Positions 49,776 to 59,223 of a stretch of DNA of 64,000 nt are shown here, piece by piece. The DNA is from an uncultured Planctomycetaceae bacterium (GTDB lineage: Bacteria; Planctomycetota; Planctomycetia; Isosphaerales; Isosphaeraceae). Where the stretch lies: assembly GCA_963833985.1 (NCBI GenBank), contig CAWIAD010000002.1:2176001-2240000 (forward strand), in the 5' to 3' direction. Position 1 is the first letter of the stretch. Each line of letters opens with the position of its first letter. The notes below the pieces were generated by a model that was not told the origin of the DNA, made no database searches, and saw only the letters and a list, made by a program, of their open reading frames with translations. Both the position numbers and the translations under genes were made by a program.

Positions 49776-52673
49776 ATGAGCCGGTCTCGGTATATCGTCG
49801 GCATTGATCTGGGGACGACCAACTGCGCGGTGGCGTATGTTGACACCAAGGGGCGCGAGCGGCCGGCGGCGGAGATCCGCATGTTCGACGTTCCGCAACT
49901 GGTGGCGGCGGGCGAATCGGCACCGCGGAGCATGCTGCCGTCATTCCTTTACCTGGCCGGCGGGCCGGAGCTGCCGCCGGGTGCAGCGCGGCTGCCCTGG
50001 GGCGACGGCGGCAACCGGATCGTCGGCGAGTTCGCGCGGATCCAGGGCGCCCGCGTGCCCGGCCGCCTGGTGCACAGCGCCAAGAGCTGGCTCTGCCATC
50101 CGGGCGTGGACCGCGAGGCCGACATCCTCCCCTGGGCGCGGGGCCGGAGATCCAGCGCGTCTCGCCCGTCGAGGCGTCGGCGGCCTACCTGCGGCACATC
50201 CGCGACGCCTGGAACCACAGCTTTGCCCTGGACGACCCGGCGCGCCGCCTGGAACAGCAAGAGGTCATCCTCACCGTGCCGGCCTCGTTCGATGAAGCGG
50301 TGCGCGAGCTGACCATCCTGGCCGCGAAGCAGGCCGACCTGAATTCGATCACGCTGCTGGAGGAGCCGCAGGCGGCGTTCTACTGCTGGATCGTCTCGCA
50401 CCAGGACCGCTGGCAGCGCGAGGTGCGGGCCGGCGAGCTCATCCTCGTCTGCGATATCGGCGGCGGCACCACCGACTTCAGCCTGATCACCGTGGTCGAG
50501 ACCCTCACCGGGCCGGGATTCCGCCGCGTGGCCGTGGGCGATCATCTCATGCTCGGCGGCGATAATATCGACCTGGCACTGGCGCACCAGGTGGAGACAA
50601 AACTGGGTGGCGTGCGGCTCGATACCGAGCAGTGGAGTGCCTTGCGCTTCGCCTGCCGGACGGCCAAGGAGAAGCTGCTCGTCGCGCAGCAGCCACTGCT
50701 CGAGCGCTGGCCCGTCACGATCGCCGGGCGCGGGTCGCGGATCATCGGCGGCAGCATCCAGTCGGAGCTGACGCGGCAGGACGTGCAGTCGATCGCGCTG
50801 GACGGGTTCTTCCCCCGGATTGGCCGCAGCGAGGAGCCGCAGCGCGGGGCGAAAACGGGGTTCCAGGAGTTTGGCCTCCCGTTCGTGGCCGACCCGGCCG
50901 TGCCCAGGCACCTGGCCGCCTTCCTGCGCCGGCACCGCTCCGAGGCGATCGGCCAGGGAGGCCACCAGAGCAACGACCGGCCGGCCCGGCCCGACGCGAT
51001 CCTCTTCAACGGCGGTGCACTCACGCCGGAGAGCGTGCGCAACCGGATCGTCGAGGTGGTGGCCTCGTGGTTCGGCGACGATCCGGGTCCGGCGTACTCC
51101 CCGCGCGTGCTCTCGAATTTTTCGCTGGACCTGGCCGTGGCCCAGGGCGCCGCGTACTACGGCGTGGTGCGCAGGGGCGGGGGAATCCGCATTGGGGGCG
51201 GTACGGCGCGTTCGTTCTACGTGGGGCTGGAGACGGGACAGGACGCCAGGCCATGGATGTGCGTGGTACCGCGTGATGCCCAGGAGGGCGACGAGACCAC
51301 GATCGACGGCCACGATTTCGACCTGCTCATGGGCCAGCCGGTGCTCTTCCCGCTGGCCAGCAGCTCGGTGCGGCCCGACGATCGGCCCGGGGACCTGGTC
51401 GCCGCCGACCCGGATTCCATTCGCGAGCTGCCTCCCTTGCAGAGCCTCATGAGGGTGGGCCGCAAGGCCAGGGCGGAGCGCGTGCCGGTGAGCCTGGTGG
51501 CACGAGTGACCGAGGTGGGTACCATCGAGCTCTGGTGCCAGTCGCGTACCGACACCCGCCGCTGGCGCTTGCAAATCCAGCTTCGAGGGCCGTCCGCCCA
51601 ACCCCAGCCGCGGACGACTGTCGCCGGAGTGGAGACCGACCGGGTGATCATCGAGCAATCCGAGCTCGATACGGCCATCGCCGCGATCCGCGATGCGTTC
51701 GCCGCACCGGCCTCGGCGGCTGGGTCCGAGACCGGTCCGGCCCGATTGATCAAGCGGCTCGAAGAGCTGATCGACGTTCCGCGCGACCAGTGGCCGCCCG
51801 CAGCCCTGCGCGCCTGGTGGGAGCCCGTGCGCGACGCGGCCGACCAGCGGCTGAAGAGCCCGCAGCACGAATCGCGCTGGTTCAACCTGGCCGGCTTCGC
51901 CTTGCGGCCCGGCCGCGGCTTCCCGCTTGACGAGATCCGCCTCAAGGCGCTCTGGCCGGTGTTTCACCAGGGAGTGAAGCACACCAGGGACGTGCAGTGC
52001 TGGGCCGAGTGGTGGATCCTCTGGCGGCGCGTGGCGGCCGGCCTGAGCCGCCAGCATCACGACGAGATCCATCGTCGCCTCGCCCCGTTCGTGGTGCCGG
52101 CGAAAGGCACCAGCCCGTCGAAGAAAGCCGGCCGGCCCAAGCCCGAGCCGCACGAGCTTGCAGAAATGTGGCGCTGCGCCGCCAGCCTGGAGCGGCTGGC
52201 GCCGGAGGTCAAGGAGGGATTGGGCAGCTCGCTGGCCAAGGAGCTGTCCCGGCCTTCCATTCCGAACTATCTGCTCTGGTGCCTGGGCCGGCTGGGCGCC
52301 CGCGTGCCGCTCTATGGACTGGCCAACACCGTGGTCCGACGCGAGGCCGCCGAGCGCTGGGTCGACGCGCTCCTCTCCCGCACGTTCGCCCCTGGCCGTG
52401 AGACCAGCGACGCGATCTTCGCCCTCTCTCAGCTTGCCCGCTCTTCCGGCGACCGTGCCCGCGATCTGCCGGAGGAGCTGCGCCAGCCGCGTCTTGAGCC
52501 GTCTCGAAGCACTGGGCGCCGACGAGTCCATTCTCCGCCCCGTCCGCGAATACCACGAGCTGGAAGCCGCACAGGAGAGCATCGCCCTGGGCGACGCGCT
52601 GCCGATCGGGCTGCGGCTGCGGGAGGAAAGTCCGCAACTCTCGCCGGCTGCGGATGCAGAGCCAGGAAAGTAA
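49776..52673 (+). CDS. Hsp70-family protein with extended C-terminal domain (DUF3731-like), apparent frameshifts at ~50135 and ~52488
   Basis: GIDLGTTN, TVPASFDE, EEPQAA, DIGGGTTD, LGGDNID and LFNGG, then a helical C-terminus with WFNLAGFALRPGRG and LGRLGAR.P.YG. Confidence 0.8.
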
Positions 52674-52830
52674 GTCTGGCCGACCGGAGCCAGGCTGCGT
52701 ACGCCCTTGACGTAGTGAGTCCCGACACCTGAAACTTGGGGCAACTTCTAATCTTGCCCGTGACCACTATCAACGCGTCGTGTCGATCTGGAGAAGAAGC
52801 AACTCTCTCACTCACCGGGACGAAACGGCC

Positions 52831-53455
52831 ATGACGACGATCGCACACCCCCCAGCCACCTTGATGTTGCCGCCGGGATTGACGCCTTACCGTCTCAGCG
52901 TCGACCAGTACGAGGCAATGGCTGAGGCCGGGATTTTGACCGAGCGCGACCGGATCGAGCTGATTGAAGGGCTGCTGGTAAGGAAAATGACCAGGAAACC
53001 CGACCACTCCACGGGCTCGGAGAAGTGCCGTCGAAGAATCGATCAGGCGCTGCCGCCCGGCTGGCACACGCGCCAGCAACAACCCATCCGCATCCCTCTG
53101 CGCAACAGTGAGCCTGAACCCGACATCGCCGTGGCTCGGGGCGACCTTGACGATTACGACACCGAGCACCCTGGTCCCGCCGACATCGCCCTCGTCGTCG
53201 AGGTCGCCCACTTCGAGCCTCCTTGCCGACCGGGCCCTCGCGAGAACCTACGGCGGAGGTGGCATTCCCACCTACTGGATCGTCAACCCGATCGACCGGC
53301 AGCTCGAGGTCTACGCGAACCCGACCGGCGGCGGCTATCCCGATCCCACCATGCTCGCCGAATCCGCGGCCGTCGAGCTGATCGTTGCCGGTGAGGTTGT
53401 CGCCCAGATCCCCGTTGTCGATCTCCTTCCTCGTAAGCCGAAGAAAGCCCTCTGA
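52831..53455 (+). CDS. Uma2 family endonuclease-fold protein, apparent frameshift at ~53209
   Basis: Motifs SVDQYEAM, RIELIEG, SEPEPD and LVVEVA, then GIPTYWIVN in the next frame. Confidence 0.85.
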
Positions 53456-53489
53456 GCATGGCCGGAAATTCACGCCGCTTGCTGTGATC

Positions 53490-53526
53490 GGCCTTGCGAT
53501 AGCAAATGGACAAAAAACCAACGCTC
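53490..53526 (+). repeat. Left terminal inverted repeat
   Basis: GGCCTTGCGATAGCAAATGGACAAAAAACCAACGCTC. Confidence 0.75.
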
Positions 53527-53542
53527 CGTCTATCTAAATGGC

Positions 53543-53916
53543 TCATAATTTGATGGAACGCAGCAGGTTCTTGCCGGCCCATCGATCGACTGGCAACTGA
53601 TGCCGGCCGTCCGGATTGATATGCTCGTACCTCGCCGGGGAGAGGTGCGCCAGGTCCTCGGGATCGATCCGCTGCCCCTTGGCCCTCGATCGGTCGATCA
53701 CCGCCCCCATGTAGACCGTGTTCCAGACGATCACGGCGTTGGTCACCAGGTTCAGGCAGCTCGCCTGGTTCGGCTGGCGTCATCGGTGCACCAATTGACC
53801 TGGGCCTTGTCCGCCTTCGTGAGGGTGTAGAAGGTGACCAGGTCCTCCCGGGGGACCTGCGGTGGATATCCAGCCAGCCGTTTCCGTTCGGCTTCGTTGA
53901 AGATCTGCCCCGGCAT
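53543..53916 (-). pseudogene. tnpA: Tn3-family transposase with large internal deletion
   Basis: N-terminus MPGQIFNEAERKRLAGYPPQVPREDLVTFYTLT.AD is joined out of frame to the C-terminus NQASCLNLVTNAVIVWNTVYM...LAHLSP..YEHIN. Confidence 0.8.
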
Positions 53917-53935
53917 GAGCTGGCACCCCCCGCCG

Positions 53936-54463
53936 TCACCACTTCCGCTCGAACTCCTCCTGGATGTGGGAGTCGGTGAAGTTGAGGTAGATGGCGGTCG
54001 TCTGGAGCCGGTCGTGGCCGAGGATCTTCTGGACGGTGGCCAGGCTTATGCCTTTCTCCAGGGCAGTCGCGGCGAAGGTGTGGCGGAGGACGTGCGGGGT
54101 CACGTCCTTGGCGAGGCCCGCCCGGTTGGCGACCTCCTTGATCAGCCCCTGGGCCCGCCGCGGCCGGACGGGGAAGTCCTTGCGAAGGGTGAAGTGATGC
54201 TCCAGCAGGCCGCGTAAGCGGCCGGACATGGGCACGACGCGGACCTTGGACTTCTTGCCGTAGGGGCCGCCCTTGCCCCGGACCCTGAGCTGACGTTGCT
54301 GCCAGAGGACATCCTTGGTGGTCAGGGCGCACAGCTCGTTAACGCGGAGGCCAGTGTCGAGCAGGGTCCAGACGATGAGGTGCTCGGTGGGCGTCTCGCA
54401 GGCGTTGGCAAGGATGTCGGCCTCCTCGGCGGTGAGGGGCTGGCGGACGTACTGGTAGGGCAT
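53936..54463 (-). CDS. Small tyrosine recombinase (putative TnpI-like resolvase)
   Basis: TGLRVNEL (R), GKG (K), PHVLRHT (H-x-x-R), LGH and C-terminal Y (TTAIY), 175 aa. Confidence 0.88.
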   Translation of the reverse strand: MPYQYVRQPLTAEEADILANACETPTEHLIVWTLLDTGLRVNELCALTTKDVLWQQRQLRVRGKGGPYGKKSKVRVVPMSGRLRGLLEHHFTLRKDFPVRPRRAQGLIKEVANRAGLAKDVTPHVLRHTFAATALEKGISLATVQKILGHDRLQTTAIYLNFTDSHIQEEFERKW

Positions 54464-54490
54464 TGCTCCCCCCGAACCGTGCGCTTATAG

Positions 54491-54629
54491 TCACGGAAAG
54501 CGCAAAGATTGCGCCTTCCGCGATTCAGCCTACTCCGGCTGCATGGGGCGGAAAAGGGGCAGATGCCTGAGAAATTTTGGCTCCGGGCATATCGGGCTCG
54601 ATGGGGCACGCGGGGCCCGATTGCGCCTT
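54491..54629. promoter_or_regulatory. Candidate resolution site upstream of the recombinase
   Basis: Inverted repeat TCACGGAAAGCGC-N7-GCGCCTTCCGCGA (54491-54523) and direct repeat GATTGCGCCTT (54507-54517, 54619-54629). Confidence 0.5.
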
Positions 54630-54813
54630 TTTACGCGGAACGCGCGCACCGGGACCCTTCAGAAAGCCATCGCCTTCCTCGTTACTCTTGCGGTTGGGGA
54701 TAATGTCCGGTGGGTGGAACCATGGCGGCTTCGACCCACAGATCCTTGGGAAAAGCGGGACCGGGACCGGGTCGCCACCGCGGGGCTCCTGATTATATCG
54801 GGGACTGAGAGCT

Positions 54814-57800
54814 ATGGCGAATCGCTTCGATGCGTTCCTATCGCATGCCTCTTCCGATAAGCCCCTCATCGAGGAACTGGCCAGGCGCTGGAGCGCGAGA
54901 ATCTGAAACCATGGCTTGACAAGTGGAATCTGATTCCCGGCATGCCCTGGATGCCCGAGCTCGAGGCTGCCCTGAATTCCTGCGCCTCCGGCGTTGTGTT
55001 CATCGGGGCCGGGGGCTTCGGCCCCTGGCAGAACGAGGAGATGCGGACGGCCATCACCCGCCGCGTCGACGAGAGCCGGGCCGGGGCTCCCGGCGATGGC
55101 CGGCCGTTCCGCGTGATTCCGGTGCTCCTGCCTGGGGCCGGCCGGCCGGAGCGTAGCCAGCTGCCTGCATTCCTGGTCGCGACGACCTGGGTGGAGTTCC
55201 GCGACTCGCTCGACGACCCCGAGGCATTCCACCGGCTGGTTTGCGGGATCCGAGGCATCGAGCCGGCCGCCGGCCCCGGCGGGGCTGTGTTCGAGGGCCG
55301 GTGCCCTTATCGCGGCCTCGAGTTATTCGATGTGGAACACGCACCGCTCTTCTTCGGCCGAGAAGCGCTCACGGAGTGGTTGCTCGACAACCTCAAGCGC
55401 CAGCCGTCCGGCAGGGAGAGTCGGTTCCTGGCGATTGTTGGTGCCTCGGGAAGTGGCAAGTCGTCGGTGGTGCGCGCGGGATTGCTCGCTGCCCTCAAGA
55501 ACGGCAAGCTCGAAGGCAGTGAGGCGTGGCCGCGGGCGGTTTGCCGGCCAGGGGCGGAGCCGTTCTTCAACCTGGCGAAAGCACTCACCGGCTTGGCGCA
55601 GGAATCCGTGAGCGCCGTGGTCTTCGATCGGTTGCAGGGCCGCAAGGACGGTGAGCGGTCTCTGCACGTTGCCGCTGGCCTGGTCCTGGGCGAGCCTCCT
55701 CGCGGTGAGCGGCTGGTTTTGCTGGTAGATCAGTTCGAGGAGATCTTCACGCTTTGCAACGATGAAGCGGAACGCCGCGACTTCATCGCCAACCTCTTGC
55801 ATGCGGCGACGGTGGCCGGCGGTCGCGCCATCGTCGTCGTGACGATGCGGGCCGACTTCTACCATCGCTGTGCCGTTCACAACGATCTGGCCGCCGCTCT
55901 GTCGGATCATCAGGTACTGATCGGACCGATGACCGACGACGAGCTGCGGCGGGCCATCGAGCGGCCTGCGCGGCTGGCCGGCCTGGAACCGGAGGCGGGA
56001 CTCGTCGAACTGCTGCTGGATGACATCCGGGGCCGTGTCGGGGCCTTGCCGCTGCTGCAGTTCGCGCTTCAAGAGGTGTGGCGTCGTCGTGAAGATTATC
56101 GTCTGACCGTCCATACTTATCGTGAGATTGGTCAGCTCGAAGGAGCGCTTCAGCGCAAGGCAGACGCGGTTTACGGCAGGTTCACGCCTGAGCAGCAAGA
56201 ACTTTGCCGTCGTGTCTTCTTGAGGTTGGTTCATCCGGGCGAGGGGAGCGAGGACACGCGCCGGCGGGCCACGCTGCGCGAACTCTTGCCGAGCGACCCC
56301 GCGCAGGCCGCGGCGGTGCAGTCGATCATCGACCGGCTGGCCGATCCGGAATCGCGGCTCTTGACGACCGAGCGGCAAAAGACGGCCGCGGGCGAGGCAA
56401 CGGCCGAGGTCGCCCACGAAGCCTTGATTCGCGGCTGGCCGTTGCTGCGGAAGTGGATCGAGGCCGACCGCGACGGGTTGAAGCTCCAGCGGCGGCTGAC
56501 CGAGGCCGCGACGGGTTGGTTGTTGCACGATCGGGAGAGCAGCTTCCTGTACACCGGCATCCCGCTGGCACAGGCGCGAGAGTGGTTGAAGACGAACCCC
56601 GATGCGCTCAACACGGTGGAGACGCAGTTCCTCAATGCGAGCATGAGGCGGCGGCGCAGGGCCAAGGTCGCGCGACTCGGGGCCATCGCCGCGATCGTCG
56701 GCCTCGCTTTCCTGGGCTGGGAGGGGCTGCGCCTGCAACAACAGGCCCAGTTCGCCTCTTTATCGAAGCTGACCAACGACGACGTGCAAGAAGCCCGAAA
56801 ACTCTCACTCCAGTCCAAGTGGGGCGAGGCGATCACTGTGCTGGAGGGGGCCGAGAAACGGCTCGGGATTGGCGGCAGGTACGAGGAACTGCGTTCCCAG
56901 GTGGAACGTCCTCTGAGTACGTACAAGGCGAAGCAACAGGAGCATGACTCGGAGGTGCGCGACAAGACAATGATCGCGGCCCTCGAAGAGGCGCACACGT
57001 TGCTTGCTGAGAATACAAGATCAGGCGGTTTGCCGTCAGAACCCGATCTCAAGGTCTTGATTCCCGGCTATCGACAGGCACTTCGCGATGGAGGGATCGA
57101 CATTGACAACCTTCCTGACGAACGGGTCATCGAGTTGATCGGGGCCAAGCCGCCGCGGGCCCGTGAGATCGTGGCCGCGGCGCTCGACGATTGGGCCAGG
57201 GCCCTCGATGGAGCAGAGCAAGAGCGCTTTCGCCGGATTGCCCGAACCTCGGACCCCGATCCGTACCGCAGCGCCATCCGCGACGCTTGCCTGAGCCACA
57301 ATCTTGCCGCCCTGAAGAAGCTGGCAAACGATCCCGAGTTAACCAAGCAGCCCGCGTTCACGCTCAATCGGTTGTGTGAATCGCTGTTTGAAGAAGGCGG
57401 CGACAAGGAGTCGATACCGTTACTGCGCCGGGCCCAGGTCCTTCACCCCCGCGACTTCTGGATCACGGCAAGCCTCGCCGCGCGCCTATGCTGGGTCTCT
57501 CCCCCCCAGCCAAACGACGCCATTCGCTTTGCAACGGCCGCCGTCGCGCTCCGACCTGAGATTCCCAGCGTTCATCGCCGCCTGGCGGTCGCTCTCATCA
57601 GGTGTGGCCGCATCAACGACGCGCGCATTGCGCTCCAGGAAGCCTTTCGGCTGAATCCCAAAGACCCCTTTGCCTACAGCACGCAGGGTTGGATCTGGGC
57701 GGCGGAAAAGAATTTCGAGAAGGCCCTCGCCAACTATGACAAGGCCATAGCCCTCAACCCGAGCTACGGACTCTACAAGAGCCGCGGCGATACGTGGATT

Positions 57801-59036
57801 GACGCGGGTGATTACGGTAGGGGGCTCGCGGACTTCGACACAGCGCTCCGCATCAATCCCCAGGATGGAGGTTCGCATATGGGGCGCGGTCGGGCTCTAG
57901 GGTTCGCAAAACGATTTCCTGAGGCAATCAAGGCGTATGACGAGGCGATCAAGCTCAGCCCCCGAGACCCGTTTGCCTACCACAACCGCGGTCTGGCGCA
58001 CCTGAACCTGGGGGAAGAGCACAACGATAGGGCCGTTGCCGATTTCACCAAGGCACTGGAACTGTTTCCGCAATTTGGCGATCCCTACGCGCATCGTGCG
58101 GAAATATGGCTACGACACCGAGACGAAAAGAGCGCGCTAGACGACTTCGACCGTGCCATCAAGTATGGGGTCAGCTACGAGTTTGCTTACAACCGACGCG
58201 GGTCGATTCGGCACCGGAACGGCTACCTCCAGGGTGCGATCGCGGATTACACCAAGGCAATCGAGATCAACCCACGATCTGCATCCGCGTACCATGATCG
58301 TGGTCGGGCCTGGACGGAAATCGGCGATTTTGACAAGGCCATGAAAGACTACGACAAGGCCATCGAACTGAGTGGAACGTTCGCCACTGCATGGGGCAAT
58401 CGAGGTCGAGTGAAGAGATTGAAGGGAGATTACGCCGGCGCTCTCGCTGACTTCAACGAGGCGATCCGGCTCAATCCTCGCTACGCCTGGGCTTTCGCGG
58501 GTCGCGCGGCGGTATGGATCAAGAAAAAGGAATTTGACAAGGCCATCAACGATTACGACCAGGCAATCCGGCTCGACCCGAGTCGAGAGCTCGCCTGGGC
58601 TCACAGCGAACGAGGGTACGCGCGAAATTCCCTGCGTCAGTACGACAAGGCGTTCGCCGATTATGACGAAGCGATTCGACTCAACGATAAACTGGCCGAT
58701 CCCTACAACCGACGCGCCTGGATCCGGGCCACTTGCCCGGACTCGAAATGCCGTGATGGCAAGAAGGCCGTCGAGTCAGCCACCCGCGCCTGTGAGCTGA
58801 CGGCGTGGAAGAACGCCGAGTTCCTCACCACGCTCGCCGCGGCCTGCGCAGAGGCCGGAGACTTCGCCGGCGCGATGAAGTGGGAAGAGAAGGCCATCGG
58901 GCTGCCCGCGAAAGGCGAGCCCCGGCGCACGACCTTCGATTCCCGCATGGCGCTCTTCGAGGCCAAGAAACCATATCGCGAAGAGCCGGACGTCGGTAAT
59001 TCCCGAGGAAACGCAATCCAGGCTGCGCGGCCGTGA
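54814..59036 (+). CDS. TIR domain - STAND (nSTAND1-like) NTPase - TM helix - TPR repeat protein, apparent 1-bp deletion at ~54887
   Basis: TIR region FDAFLSHASSDK...WLDKWNLIPG...GPWQNEE. NTPase region CPYRGL..F...FFGRE, Walker A GASGSGKS, Walker B LLVDQFEE, GALPLL and HEALIRGW. Then a hydrophobic helix after RRRRR and roughly a dozen TPRs. Confidence 0.85.
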
Positions 59037-59146
59037 TTGCCCACGACGACGGGTCGTCCGGAATCCCCTCGACGCGATGTCAACCCAAAATCAAGAAGTG
59101 CGTCTTTCTGGGCCCGAAGCGCACACCTGAACCGGCGCTCACTACC

Positions 59147-59182
59147 GAGCGTCGGTTTTTGTCCGTTTACTATCCCTAGCCC
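59147..59182 (-). repeat. Right terminal inverted repeat
   Basis: The reverse complement reads GGGCTAGGGATAGTAAACGGACAAAAACCGACGCTC. Confidence 0.75.
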
Positions 59183-59223
59183 TGATCGGCCGGCTGTGCC
59201 GAGGCGCATTGCCTCGTGATCGA

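Follow-up and report, generated by a model that had tools for sequence, protein, structure and literature searches.

Three groups of described systems come closest to the locus considered here. Firstly, Tn4430, Tn5401 and TnBth4 are Tn3-family transposons in which, in the available parts of the reports, a recombination site, a tyrosine recombinase (TnpI) and the transposase gene tnpA lie colinearly (PMC7157771, PMC2847244). Secondly, non-autonomous Tn3 derivatives with a passenger are already known from the accessible sections of two papers (PMC4337579, PMC4133298). These MICs and TIMEs, again as far as the available text goes, have 38-bp terminal inverted repeats (IRs), 5-bp target duplications and passenger genes and can be moved only in trans, one TIME derivative retaining a resolvase and res (PMC4337579, PMC4133298, PMC13367494). 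Thirdly, the available part of one source describes nSTAND1 in predicted counter-invader proteins (PMC8195603). The element that we set against these occupies positions 53490-59182 (5,693 bp) of the window, by which we mean the whole 64-kb stretch of DNA analysed (G000:C2:2176001-2240000, from a 10.2-Mb planctomycete genome in two contigs). It shares the layout of the first group and the organization of the second. We consider it probable that it is a Tn3 transposon with a deleted tnpA, a small recombinase that is likely its resolvase, and a membrane-spanning TIR-STAND-TPR receptor as passenger.

That the element belongs to the Tn3 family is virtually certain. It is bounded by a 39-nt IR on the tnpA side (53490-53528, plus strand) and a 38-nt IR on the cargo side (59145-59182, minus strand; 108 bp past the passenger stop codon). 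The two are identical at 31 of 38 positions with one gap, the left copy having one extra A in its A-run, and they begin with GG, as do the ~38-bp IRs of the family. TGATC abuts both ends (53485-53489 and 59183-59187), giving the 5-bp target duplication typical of Tn3 elements; such duplications were also found at three of eight other IR pairs examined. Compared with the IR behind an intact tnpA in a genome of the same genus (G003:C248), the tnpA-side IR is identical at 35 of 38 positions and the cargo-side IR at 32 of 38, while no other match to the left IR at a comparable level occurs in the window. A first-pass annotation, made from the sequence alone, had listed the imperfect inverted ends and the flanking TGATC; both are present as listed, save that the right IR, credited with six As, has five. 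It had left the left boundary ambiguous on account of a 9-mer shared by the two flanks. Of 48 distinct copies collected with IR and flank, 27 start with GGCC and 12 with GGGG. Because GGCC-starting ends are thus normal in the family, we place the left end at 53490 and regard the flanking 9-mer as coincidental. A 9-bp duplication, TGATCGGCC, combined with a truncated left IR was considered and is ruled out, GGCC being the commonest IR start and relatives giving 5-bp duplications.

The tnpA remnants that the first-pass annotation had placed at one end are borne out by profile matches at both tnpA termini. The 3' remnant (53543-53777, minus strand) holds the last ~77 codons with the stop in its usual place (DDE_Tnp_Tn3, E 1.8e-18; 81% DNA identity to the G003 tnpA), and the 5' remnant (53771-53916, minus strand) the first ~48 codons, with a DUF4158 match (E 6.8e-5) that falls below the cut-off. 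Measured against the intact G003 copy, ~2.56 kb of tnpA is gone between them, and the junction shows short imperfect microhomology. At the G003 locus (L041) a recombinase 88% identical in amino acid sequence is followed by the intact tnpA and then the family IR; the product, 980 amino acids long, scores 995 bits against the NCBIfam Tn3 model (cut-off 500). Through both of its tnpA termini and this relative, the element belongs to the lineage of ~1,000-residue DDE transposases. An autonomous Tn3 member would hold an intact transposase in its own copy, which the 2.56-kb deletion precludes here. A Tn3 DDE model search of the host genome (G000) hit four places, namely the window remnant, two other stubs and a 427-residue frame belonging to a distant type; the assembly, which is 96% complete and may be missing plasmids, yielded no intact cognate transposase. 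Since tnpA is deleted and the genome shows no intact cognate transposase, we regard the element as non-autonomous. It is single-copy, and the deletion may post-date insertion.

Relatives place the element in a wider family. Two complete relatives have the same IRs around a recombinase and tnpA, namely L062 (12,987 bp, duplication GGATC) and L112 (6,650 bp, duplication GCCTC; both tnpA frames interrupted as assembled); a non-autonomous one (L237) spans 2,961 bp with the duplication GGATA. Two minis of ~435 bp each (L238 and L239) consist of IR, site, gene stubs and IR. Of 121 family genomes, 29 contain the family IR pattern and none contains its reversed control. The worry, voiced in the first-pass annotation, that IR-like ends might never flank intact Tn3 transposases can be set aside, since in relatives these IRs enclose intact transposases and are accompanied by 5-bp duplications. 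Two further traces lie in the host genome itself: a Tn3-type IR ending ACGCTAAG with ~50 codons of a tnpA 3' end, a related-element relic (L001; G000:C1:2758856-2759065), and a solo cargo-side family IR with ~60 bp similar to the right end of the window element (L004; G000:C2:3816207-3816273), within 10 kb of which no recombinase or tnpA was found.

The insertion slot is variable. Three genomes of the same genus hold both flanks, with a 75-bp gap between them in G009, ~560 bp including a short predicted HNH-type gene in G002, and 5.8 kb of other DNA in G010; neither the passenger nor a Uma2 gene is present in the slot in any of the three. These comparisons bear on whether the receptor gene was resident and came to be flanked, independently, by a deleted transposon and a stray IR. 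Solo IRs are common in the family, with those at C2:3816207 and C1:2758856 as instances in G000, and would supply the stray end. However, identical 5-mers abut both ends of the element, the gene is missing from the slot in all three genomes that keep both flanks, and intact relatives have their cargo on that side of the site too, so that we hold a resident origin to be very improbable. The contention of the first-pass annotation that transposon and TIR-STAND-TPR gene were inserted as one unit is supported, the unit being a Tn3-family element with a res-recombinase-tnpA layout.

Immediately upstream of tnpA, and colinear with it, lies the tyrosine recombinase gene recognized in the first-pass annotation (53936-54463, minus strand). 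Its 175-residue product gives a Phage_integrase match and consists of the catalytic domain only; its complement of usual catalytic residues (R40, H124, R127, H150 and Y159) is intact, and K64 is the candidate catalytic lysine. By profile, sequence and predicted fold the protein aligns solely to the C-terminal part of XerA (residues 94-262 of 263), and its model (pLDDT 83.8) has a TM-score of 0.73 to XerA by query length. At a threshold of E 1e-30, a search returned 2,351 proteins of 96-307 amino acids, and the majority of the 120 top-ranking ones are exactly 175 residues long. In 42 aligned homologues (49-91% identity) start and length agree; H128, R127, H150 and Y159 are invariant, and R40 and H124 nearly so. 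When longer proteins were searched, seven matches only came up, a scarcity that may serve as weak evidence that the recombinase stands alone. FimB and FimE also lack an N-terminal domain; the Fim-type model scores the recombinase at 31 bits against a cut-off of 221. XerL of Legionellales (~400 amino acids, catalytic Y387) was ruled out as the resolvase on size, given 175 residues and Y159 here. Judged from its sequence, the protein quite probably serves as a resolvase. A decayed 3' piece of the same small recombinase (L005; G000:C2:2271935-2272089) lies 37 kb past the element, beside a small toxin-antitoxin-like gene pair.

The predicted recombination site comprises five motifs over 167 bp. 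Three of them, arranged GCGCA-N5-TGCGC-N15-GCGCA (54480-54514, minus strand), lie directly upstream of the recombinase gene and are likely accessory or autoregulatory; the other two form a distal dyad, motif-N15-motif (54622-54646, minus strand), which is likely the crossover site. The consensus [GA]CG[AC]A-N5-T[TG]CG[CT]-N15-[GA]CG[AC]A stands upstream of 17 of the 18 homologues that are at least 75% identical and of 51 of the 55 at 60-75%, as against none of 103 downstream stretches; by shuffling, ~0.06 would be expected in each group. The loci in which the pattern was counted are also those that gave rise to it, and these figures are a gauge of conservation rather than an independent test. 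Three arm letters switch jointly, from C/G/C (17 of 17 close matches) to A/T/A (37 of 51). At most loci this second dyad is found 112-114 bp upstream, and it is there that elements differing in cargo generally begin to resemble each other. It is on this last ground, and by analogy with Tn3 site I and with IR1-IR2 of Tn4430, that we take the distal dyad as the likely point of crossover. A promoter scan gave a single weak match, near chance.

The distribution of this module extends beyond a single transposon lineage. Of the 51 informative loci with at least 60% identity, 27 have a Tn3 tnpA within 1.5 kb of the recombinase, a count that is biased upward (short contigs entered it only if they held tnpA) and includes some near-duplicate loci; 44 further loci were too short to be informative. 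These cases show four layouts and several distant TnpA clades, as drawn from a quick tree without named references. In a sister TnpA group (58-64% identity), six of seven loci have a divergent serine resolvase instead. The recombinase also stands beside a Mu/Tn5053-like transposase at four loci, three of them named Legionella or Tatlockia, and near parA on two plasmids. Tn3 elements, Mu-like elements and plasmids share a need to resolve multimers or cointegrates, and on this ground we take the recombinase to be, in all likelihood, a portable resolvase.

Several individual loci deserve mention. At the four Mu/Tn5053-like loci (L065:1977-4944, L066, L070 and L124), the 175-residue recombinase is divergent from the transposase and occupies a position in which one would look for a serine resolvase; L065 and L124 also have an AAA ATPase. 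The TnpAs of L292 and L293 are very closely related. A 92%-identical fragment of the small tyrosine recombinase precedes one of them and a serine resolvase the other; the pair is a recent module swap. On a Megaira endosymbiont plasmid (L257:6537-8528) the recombinase is divergent from an annotated TIR-domain gene, and in L115 EAD8-trypsin genes adjoin it. A distant branch of 175-residue recombinases at ~50% identity (L083-L106, L163-L189) occurs in Aerophobetes, Atribacterota, Elusimicrobiota and archaeal bins, with no Tn3 transposase and no such site motif at these loci.

In XerA and Cre the core-binding domain forms half of the DNA clamp, and it is this domain that the small recombinase lacks. 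It may thus need a host partner in place of the missing half, or act mainly as a repressor or invertase, and the many homologues with no transposase nearby would suit such roles. Yet its catalytic residues are invariant or nearly so, neither the colinear (~20 bp) nor the divergent (200-280 bp) layouts before tnpA leave room for a helper gene, and it sits where sister transposases have a serine resolvase. We therefore think it improbable that the enzyme is not self-sufficient. A far stronger proposal can be framed from the same material: that the 175-residue enzyme adds another class to the cointegrate resolvases TnpR, TnpI and TnpS/T, one that is self-sufficient, catalytic-domain-only and acting on a five-motif site, in a 0.7-kb module traded across phyla among Tn3 clades, Mu-like transposons and plasmids; that its crossover site doubles as a cargo-swap point; and that it delivered a working NLR of Toll-like topology, sensing outside the inner membrane and firing a cytoplasmic TIR NADase. 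Taken as a whole, this proposal is speculative and we rate it as unlikely.

The passenger gene (54814-59036, plus strand; ~1,407 codons) fills the remainder of the element. In order, it encodes a TIR domain (54814-55241), with a partial TIR_2 match and a conserved glutamate at 55038-55040 (E76 in intact homologues); an nSTAND1 NTPase (55305-56540) with Walker A GASGSGKSS and Walker B VDQFEE; a predicted transmembrane helix following an arginine run (56661-56717; hydropathy 1.73); and a helical linker with a TPR array recognized by domain profiles (56742-59033), the predicted sensor on the far side of the membrane. Membership of nSTAND1 is clear (Pfam PF20703, E 1.8e-127; 427 bits against a cut-off of 27), and in the structure model, which is that of the homologue P0141, the nSTAND1 part matches Cdc6/Orc1 AAA+ plus winged helix (Z 16.5-16.8, root-mean-square deviation 7.9-9.5). 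None of the aligned sequences departs from E76 (25 of 25 and 52 of 52), the Walker motifs are conserved, and the TIR structures nearest to the family profile are bacterial, including the NAD+ hydrolase AbTIR. The ratio of nonsynonymous to synonymous divergence (dN/dS) of the TIR-STAND part against a homologue in genome G083 is 0.15. The first-pass annotation's TIR, STAND and TPR domains are thereby confirmed, and its label "NLR-like" holds for the domain order; it had missed the hydrophobic helix between STAND and TPR, which calls for the qualifier membrane-spanning, and made no mention of a frameshift near 54888. Its attribution to a planctomycete agrees with the closest named relatives, which come from Planctomycetales for the recombinase and from Isosphaeraceae and Planctomycetaceae entries for the passenger.

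Hydropathy at the helix is at least 1.6 in 91 of 113 scored homologues, as against 11 of 113 for later regions (seven of 120 could not be anchored). The helix is absent from all seven histidine-kinase/PAS fusions and present in a penicillin-binding-domain fusion; in a phosphatase fusion, a hydropathy of 1.76 falls inside the phosphatase's own domain. The segment thus tracks the location expected for the C-terminal domain. Given the arginine run before the helix and the positive-inside rule, TIR-STAND would lie inside and the TPR array outside, and on this reasoning it is quite probable that the sensor and the TIR are on opposite sides of the membrane.

Several observations weigh against the composite reading that we favour. 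Five of the nine IR pairs examined, all of 2.2 kb or less, lack a 5-bp duplication, and the exact empty site for which the first-pass annotation had hoped was not found among the three same-genus genomes holding both flanks. The site motif occurs in just two of 40 distant homologues (<60% identity), and no Tn3 tnpA lies within 1.5 kb at 24 of 51 informative close loci or at any of 23 loci below 60%, to which the upward bias of the complementary count must be added. The cargo of sister elements is not defensive. As to the passenger, its helix is of moderate hydropathy on a simple scale; the assembled gene contains a frameshift; PADLOC gives it matches of P-loop size only; and TIR-nSTAND1 is elsewhere fused to histidine kinase, PAS/GAF, SpoIIE phosphatase or penicillin-binding domains (P0168, P0170, P0194, P0199, P0211, P0225, P0236, P0148, P0216), partners that are unusual for an NLR-type module and suggest signalling roles.

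The frameshift, of one base near 54888, is an immediate concern, for the transposon reading could stand while the passenger is a dead hitch-hiker, truly frameshifted, its TIR deprived of the first strand and helix, in an element that is decaying as a whole. Neither P0123 (1,398 amino acids; 79% identity across the searched region) nor the G083 homologue has a break at this point. The loss of tnpA, several IR substitutions and a recombinase whose nonsynonymous divergence (dN) from its relatives, at 0.05-0.07, exceeds the 0.02-0.04 seen among those relatives are all what decay would leave. On the other hand, the remaining 1,364 codons, from 54942, are open with every motif intact, and the assembly itself is prone to such changes: conserved genes of G000 show eight frame changes in 43 alignments (65 kb), or ~0.16 per kb after removal of a gene counted eight times, from which a 4.2-kb gene has roughly even odds of acquiring one by error alone. 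An assembly error is therefore about as likely as a real lesion. Among public sequencing runs, one DNA run held 5% of the words, with no cover over the frameshift, and no holder of RNA was listed. We lean slightly towards an intact passenger and treat a dead one as a substantial but less probable case. Two genes adjoining the element, a Uma2-type gene (52831-53455) and an Hsp70-like gene (49776-52732), also appear frameshifted, consistent with assembly indel errors. A tRNA scan of seven loci found none.

If the gene is intact, its role has to be weighed. An immune function for the protein family is what we incline to, with some reserve. The competing view is that of an ordinary transmembrane signalling receptor with no phage role, in which a TIR-STAND output is set on the sensor half of planctomycete kinase-TPR receptors. 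Indeed, because all three paralogues of the helical linker in G000 follow Ser/Thr kinase motifs, the passenger looks like a TIR-STAND module on a kinase-receptor sensor half; the module is fused elsewhere to kinase, PAS and phosphatase domains, PADLOC yields no Avs match, and in the available part of one paper defence and non-defence STAND clades are interspersed (PMC13581612). Against this stand the invariant TIR glutamate, the bacterial NADases among the nearest TIR structures, and a patchy distribution (11 of 121 family genomes) with swapped sensors, such as WD40 in G083, which fit a conflict system. We accordingly judge a purely signalling role to be somewhat unlikely. The STAND part found no match in PADLOC 2023 or among PDB sequences; Foldseek of the passenger model returned TPR proteins only, and a wider search listed no Avs structure, which excludes nothing.

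The TIR-nSTAND1 family is large, with 4,287 of 8,000 candidates passing E 1e-60, and carriage by such transposons appears to be occasional. At 15 other TIR-nSTAND1 loci no recombinase or tnpA lay in the stretch fetched (up to ~10 kb per side, less on short contigs), and 14 of the 15 have no family IR nearby. The remaining one, in G083, is the closest homologue among them (76%), encodes a WD40 sensor and adjoins a patatin gene and a family IR (L235:9640-15446; G083:C4), with no second end in 50 kb upstream; it hints at earlier carriage, no more. In L125 and L155, too, the recombinase has patatin genes in its neighbourhood, in L155 with a PAS-TIR gene. The cargo of sister elements is metabolic and unrelated to the receptor, namely DabAB together with carbonic anhydrases, an acyltransferase, redox enzymes or an esterase, and a PADLOC scan of 150 cargo neighbours (of 173 picked) gave few matches, mostly to generic domains, from which we claim no enrichment of defence. 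The transposon family is a general carrier, not specialized for receptor cargo, and carriage of the receptor looks like occasional capture rather than the work of a defence-dedicated transposon. The 13-kb member L062 (L062:573-13559), with DabA/DabB-type inorganic carbon transporter genes and two carbonic anhydrases, is a mobile CO2-concentrating cassette in a planctomycete.

As a working mechanism, we suppose that a cognate TnpA, encoded by the element until the deletion or else provided in trans, gave rise to a cointegrate, which the small recombinase would resolve by crossover at the distal dyad, the three proximal motifs acting as accessory and autoregulatory sites. Crossover at the distal dyad between elements could also swap cargo. 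For the passenger, we envisage ligand binding by the TPR array outside the inner membrane and, inside, an ATP-dependent oligomerization of STAND driven by clustering; the assembled TIR domains would cleave NAD+, so that the cell is killed or stalled or a signal is made.

There is nothing unusual as such about a defective Tn3 derivative that carries a passenger. What appears to be new here, going by sequence, is a catalytic-only resolvase module with a defined site and a predicted membrane-spanning NLR-type cargo. Our literature search, which missed most subscription papers, TnCentral and ISfinder, found no description of a catalytic-domain-only Tn3 resolvase or of NLR cargo on Tn3 elements, and the available text of PMC8138268 names no catalytic-only group. 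If true, the first would show how a tyrosine recombinase can attain specificity and directionality without a core-binding clamp; its 175 residues and the defined 25-bp candidate core make it an easy subject for experiment and possibly a compact tool. A transmembrane TIR-STAND-TPR protein, if confirmed, would mean that NLR-type sensing in bacteria reaches beyond the cytoplasm to the envelope. The element itself illustrates one way for such receptors to travel between planctomycete genomes.

How, then, does the element stand to its closest counterparts? Archaeal XerA (PDB 5hxy, 4a8e) is the best match to the recombinase in both sequence and fold; XerA has a core-binding domain and resolves chromosomes, whereas the element's enzyme lacks that domain. 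TnpI is a protein of ~284 amino acids. On published description rather than alignment, it is set apart from the 175-residue enzyme by a length of at least 234 residues, implied by the H234L mutant in the accessible text (PMC2847244). "Tn4430-like", the term of the first-pass annotation, is apt for the order of site, tyrosine recombinase and tnpA and fails for identity with TnpI, the core-binding domain being missing and the site unlike the Tn4430 recombination site (IRS). Both sites have several copies of one motif with a likely core far from the gene, but the IRS, as the available text gives it, spans 116 bp with IR1-IR2 plus DR1-DR2, as against five motifs in another arrangement over 167 bp. 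Tn4430 is without a passenger, and the G003 TnpA matches its transposase at 615 bits, about the level of other matches at 38-39% identity. With an IR-flanked passenger and no working transposase, the element is MIC- or TIME-like, and the ~435-bp minis of its family parallel those elements; unlike MICs and TIMEs as characterized in the available text, it retains tnpA stubs, a tyrosine rather than a serine resolvase, and a 4.2-kb receptor cargo. The passenger shares with Avs/NLR-like STAND proteins and nSTAND1 conflict proteins, in the sections open to us, the order effector-STAND-repeat, a TIR effector, a TPR sensor and swappable sensors (PMC13581612, PMC8195603, PMC10907252), and its own STAND clade may already be classified in the supplements of the first of these. 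The Avs proteins tested, according to the accessible text, bind phage proteins inside cells (PMC13581612), whereas the passenger has a predicted transmembrane segment between STAND and sensor. Membrane-associated STANDs are nevertheless not without precedent, since the target of one STAND-lectin is predicted to be periplasmic in the available part of PMC10907252.

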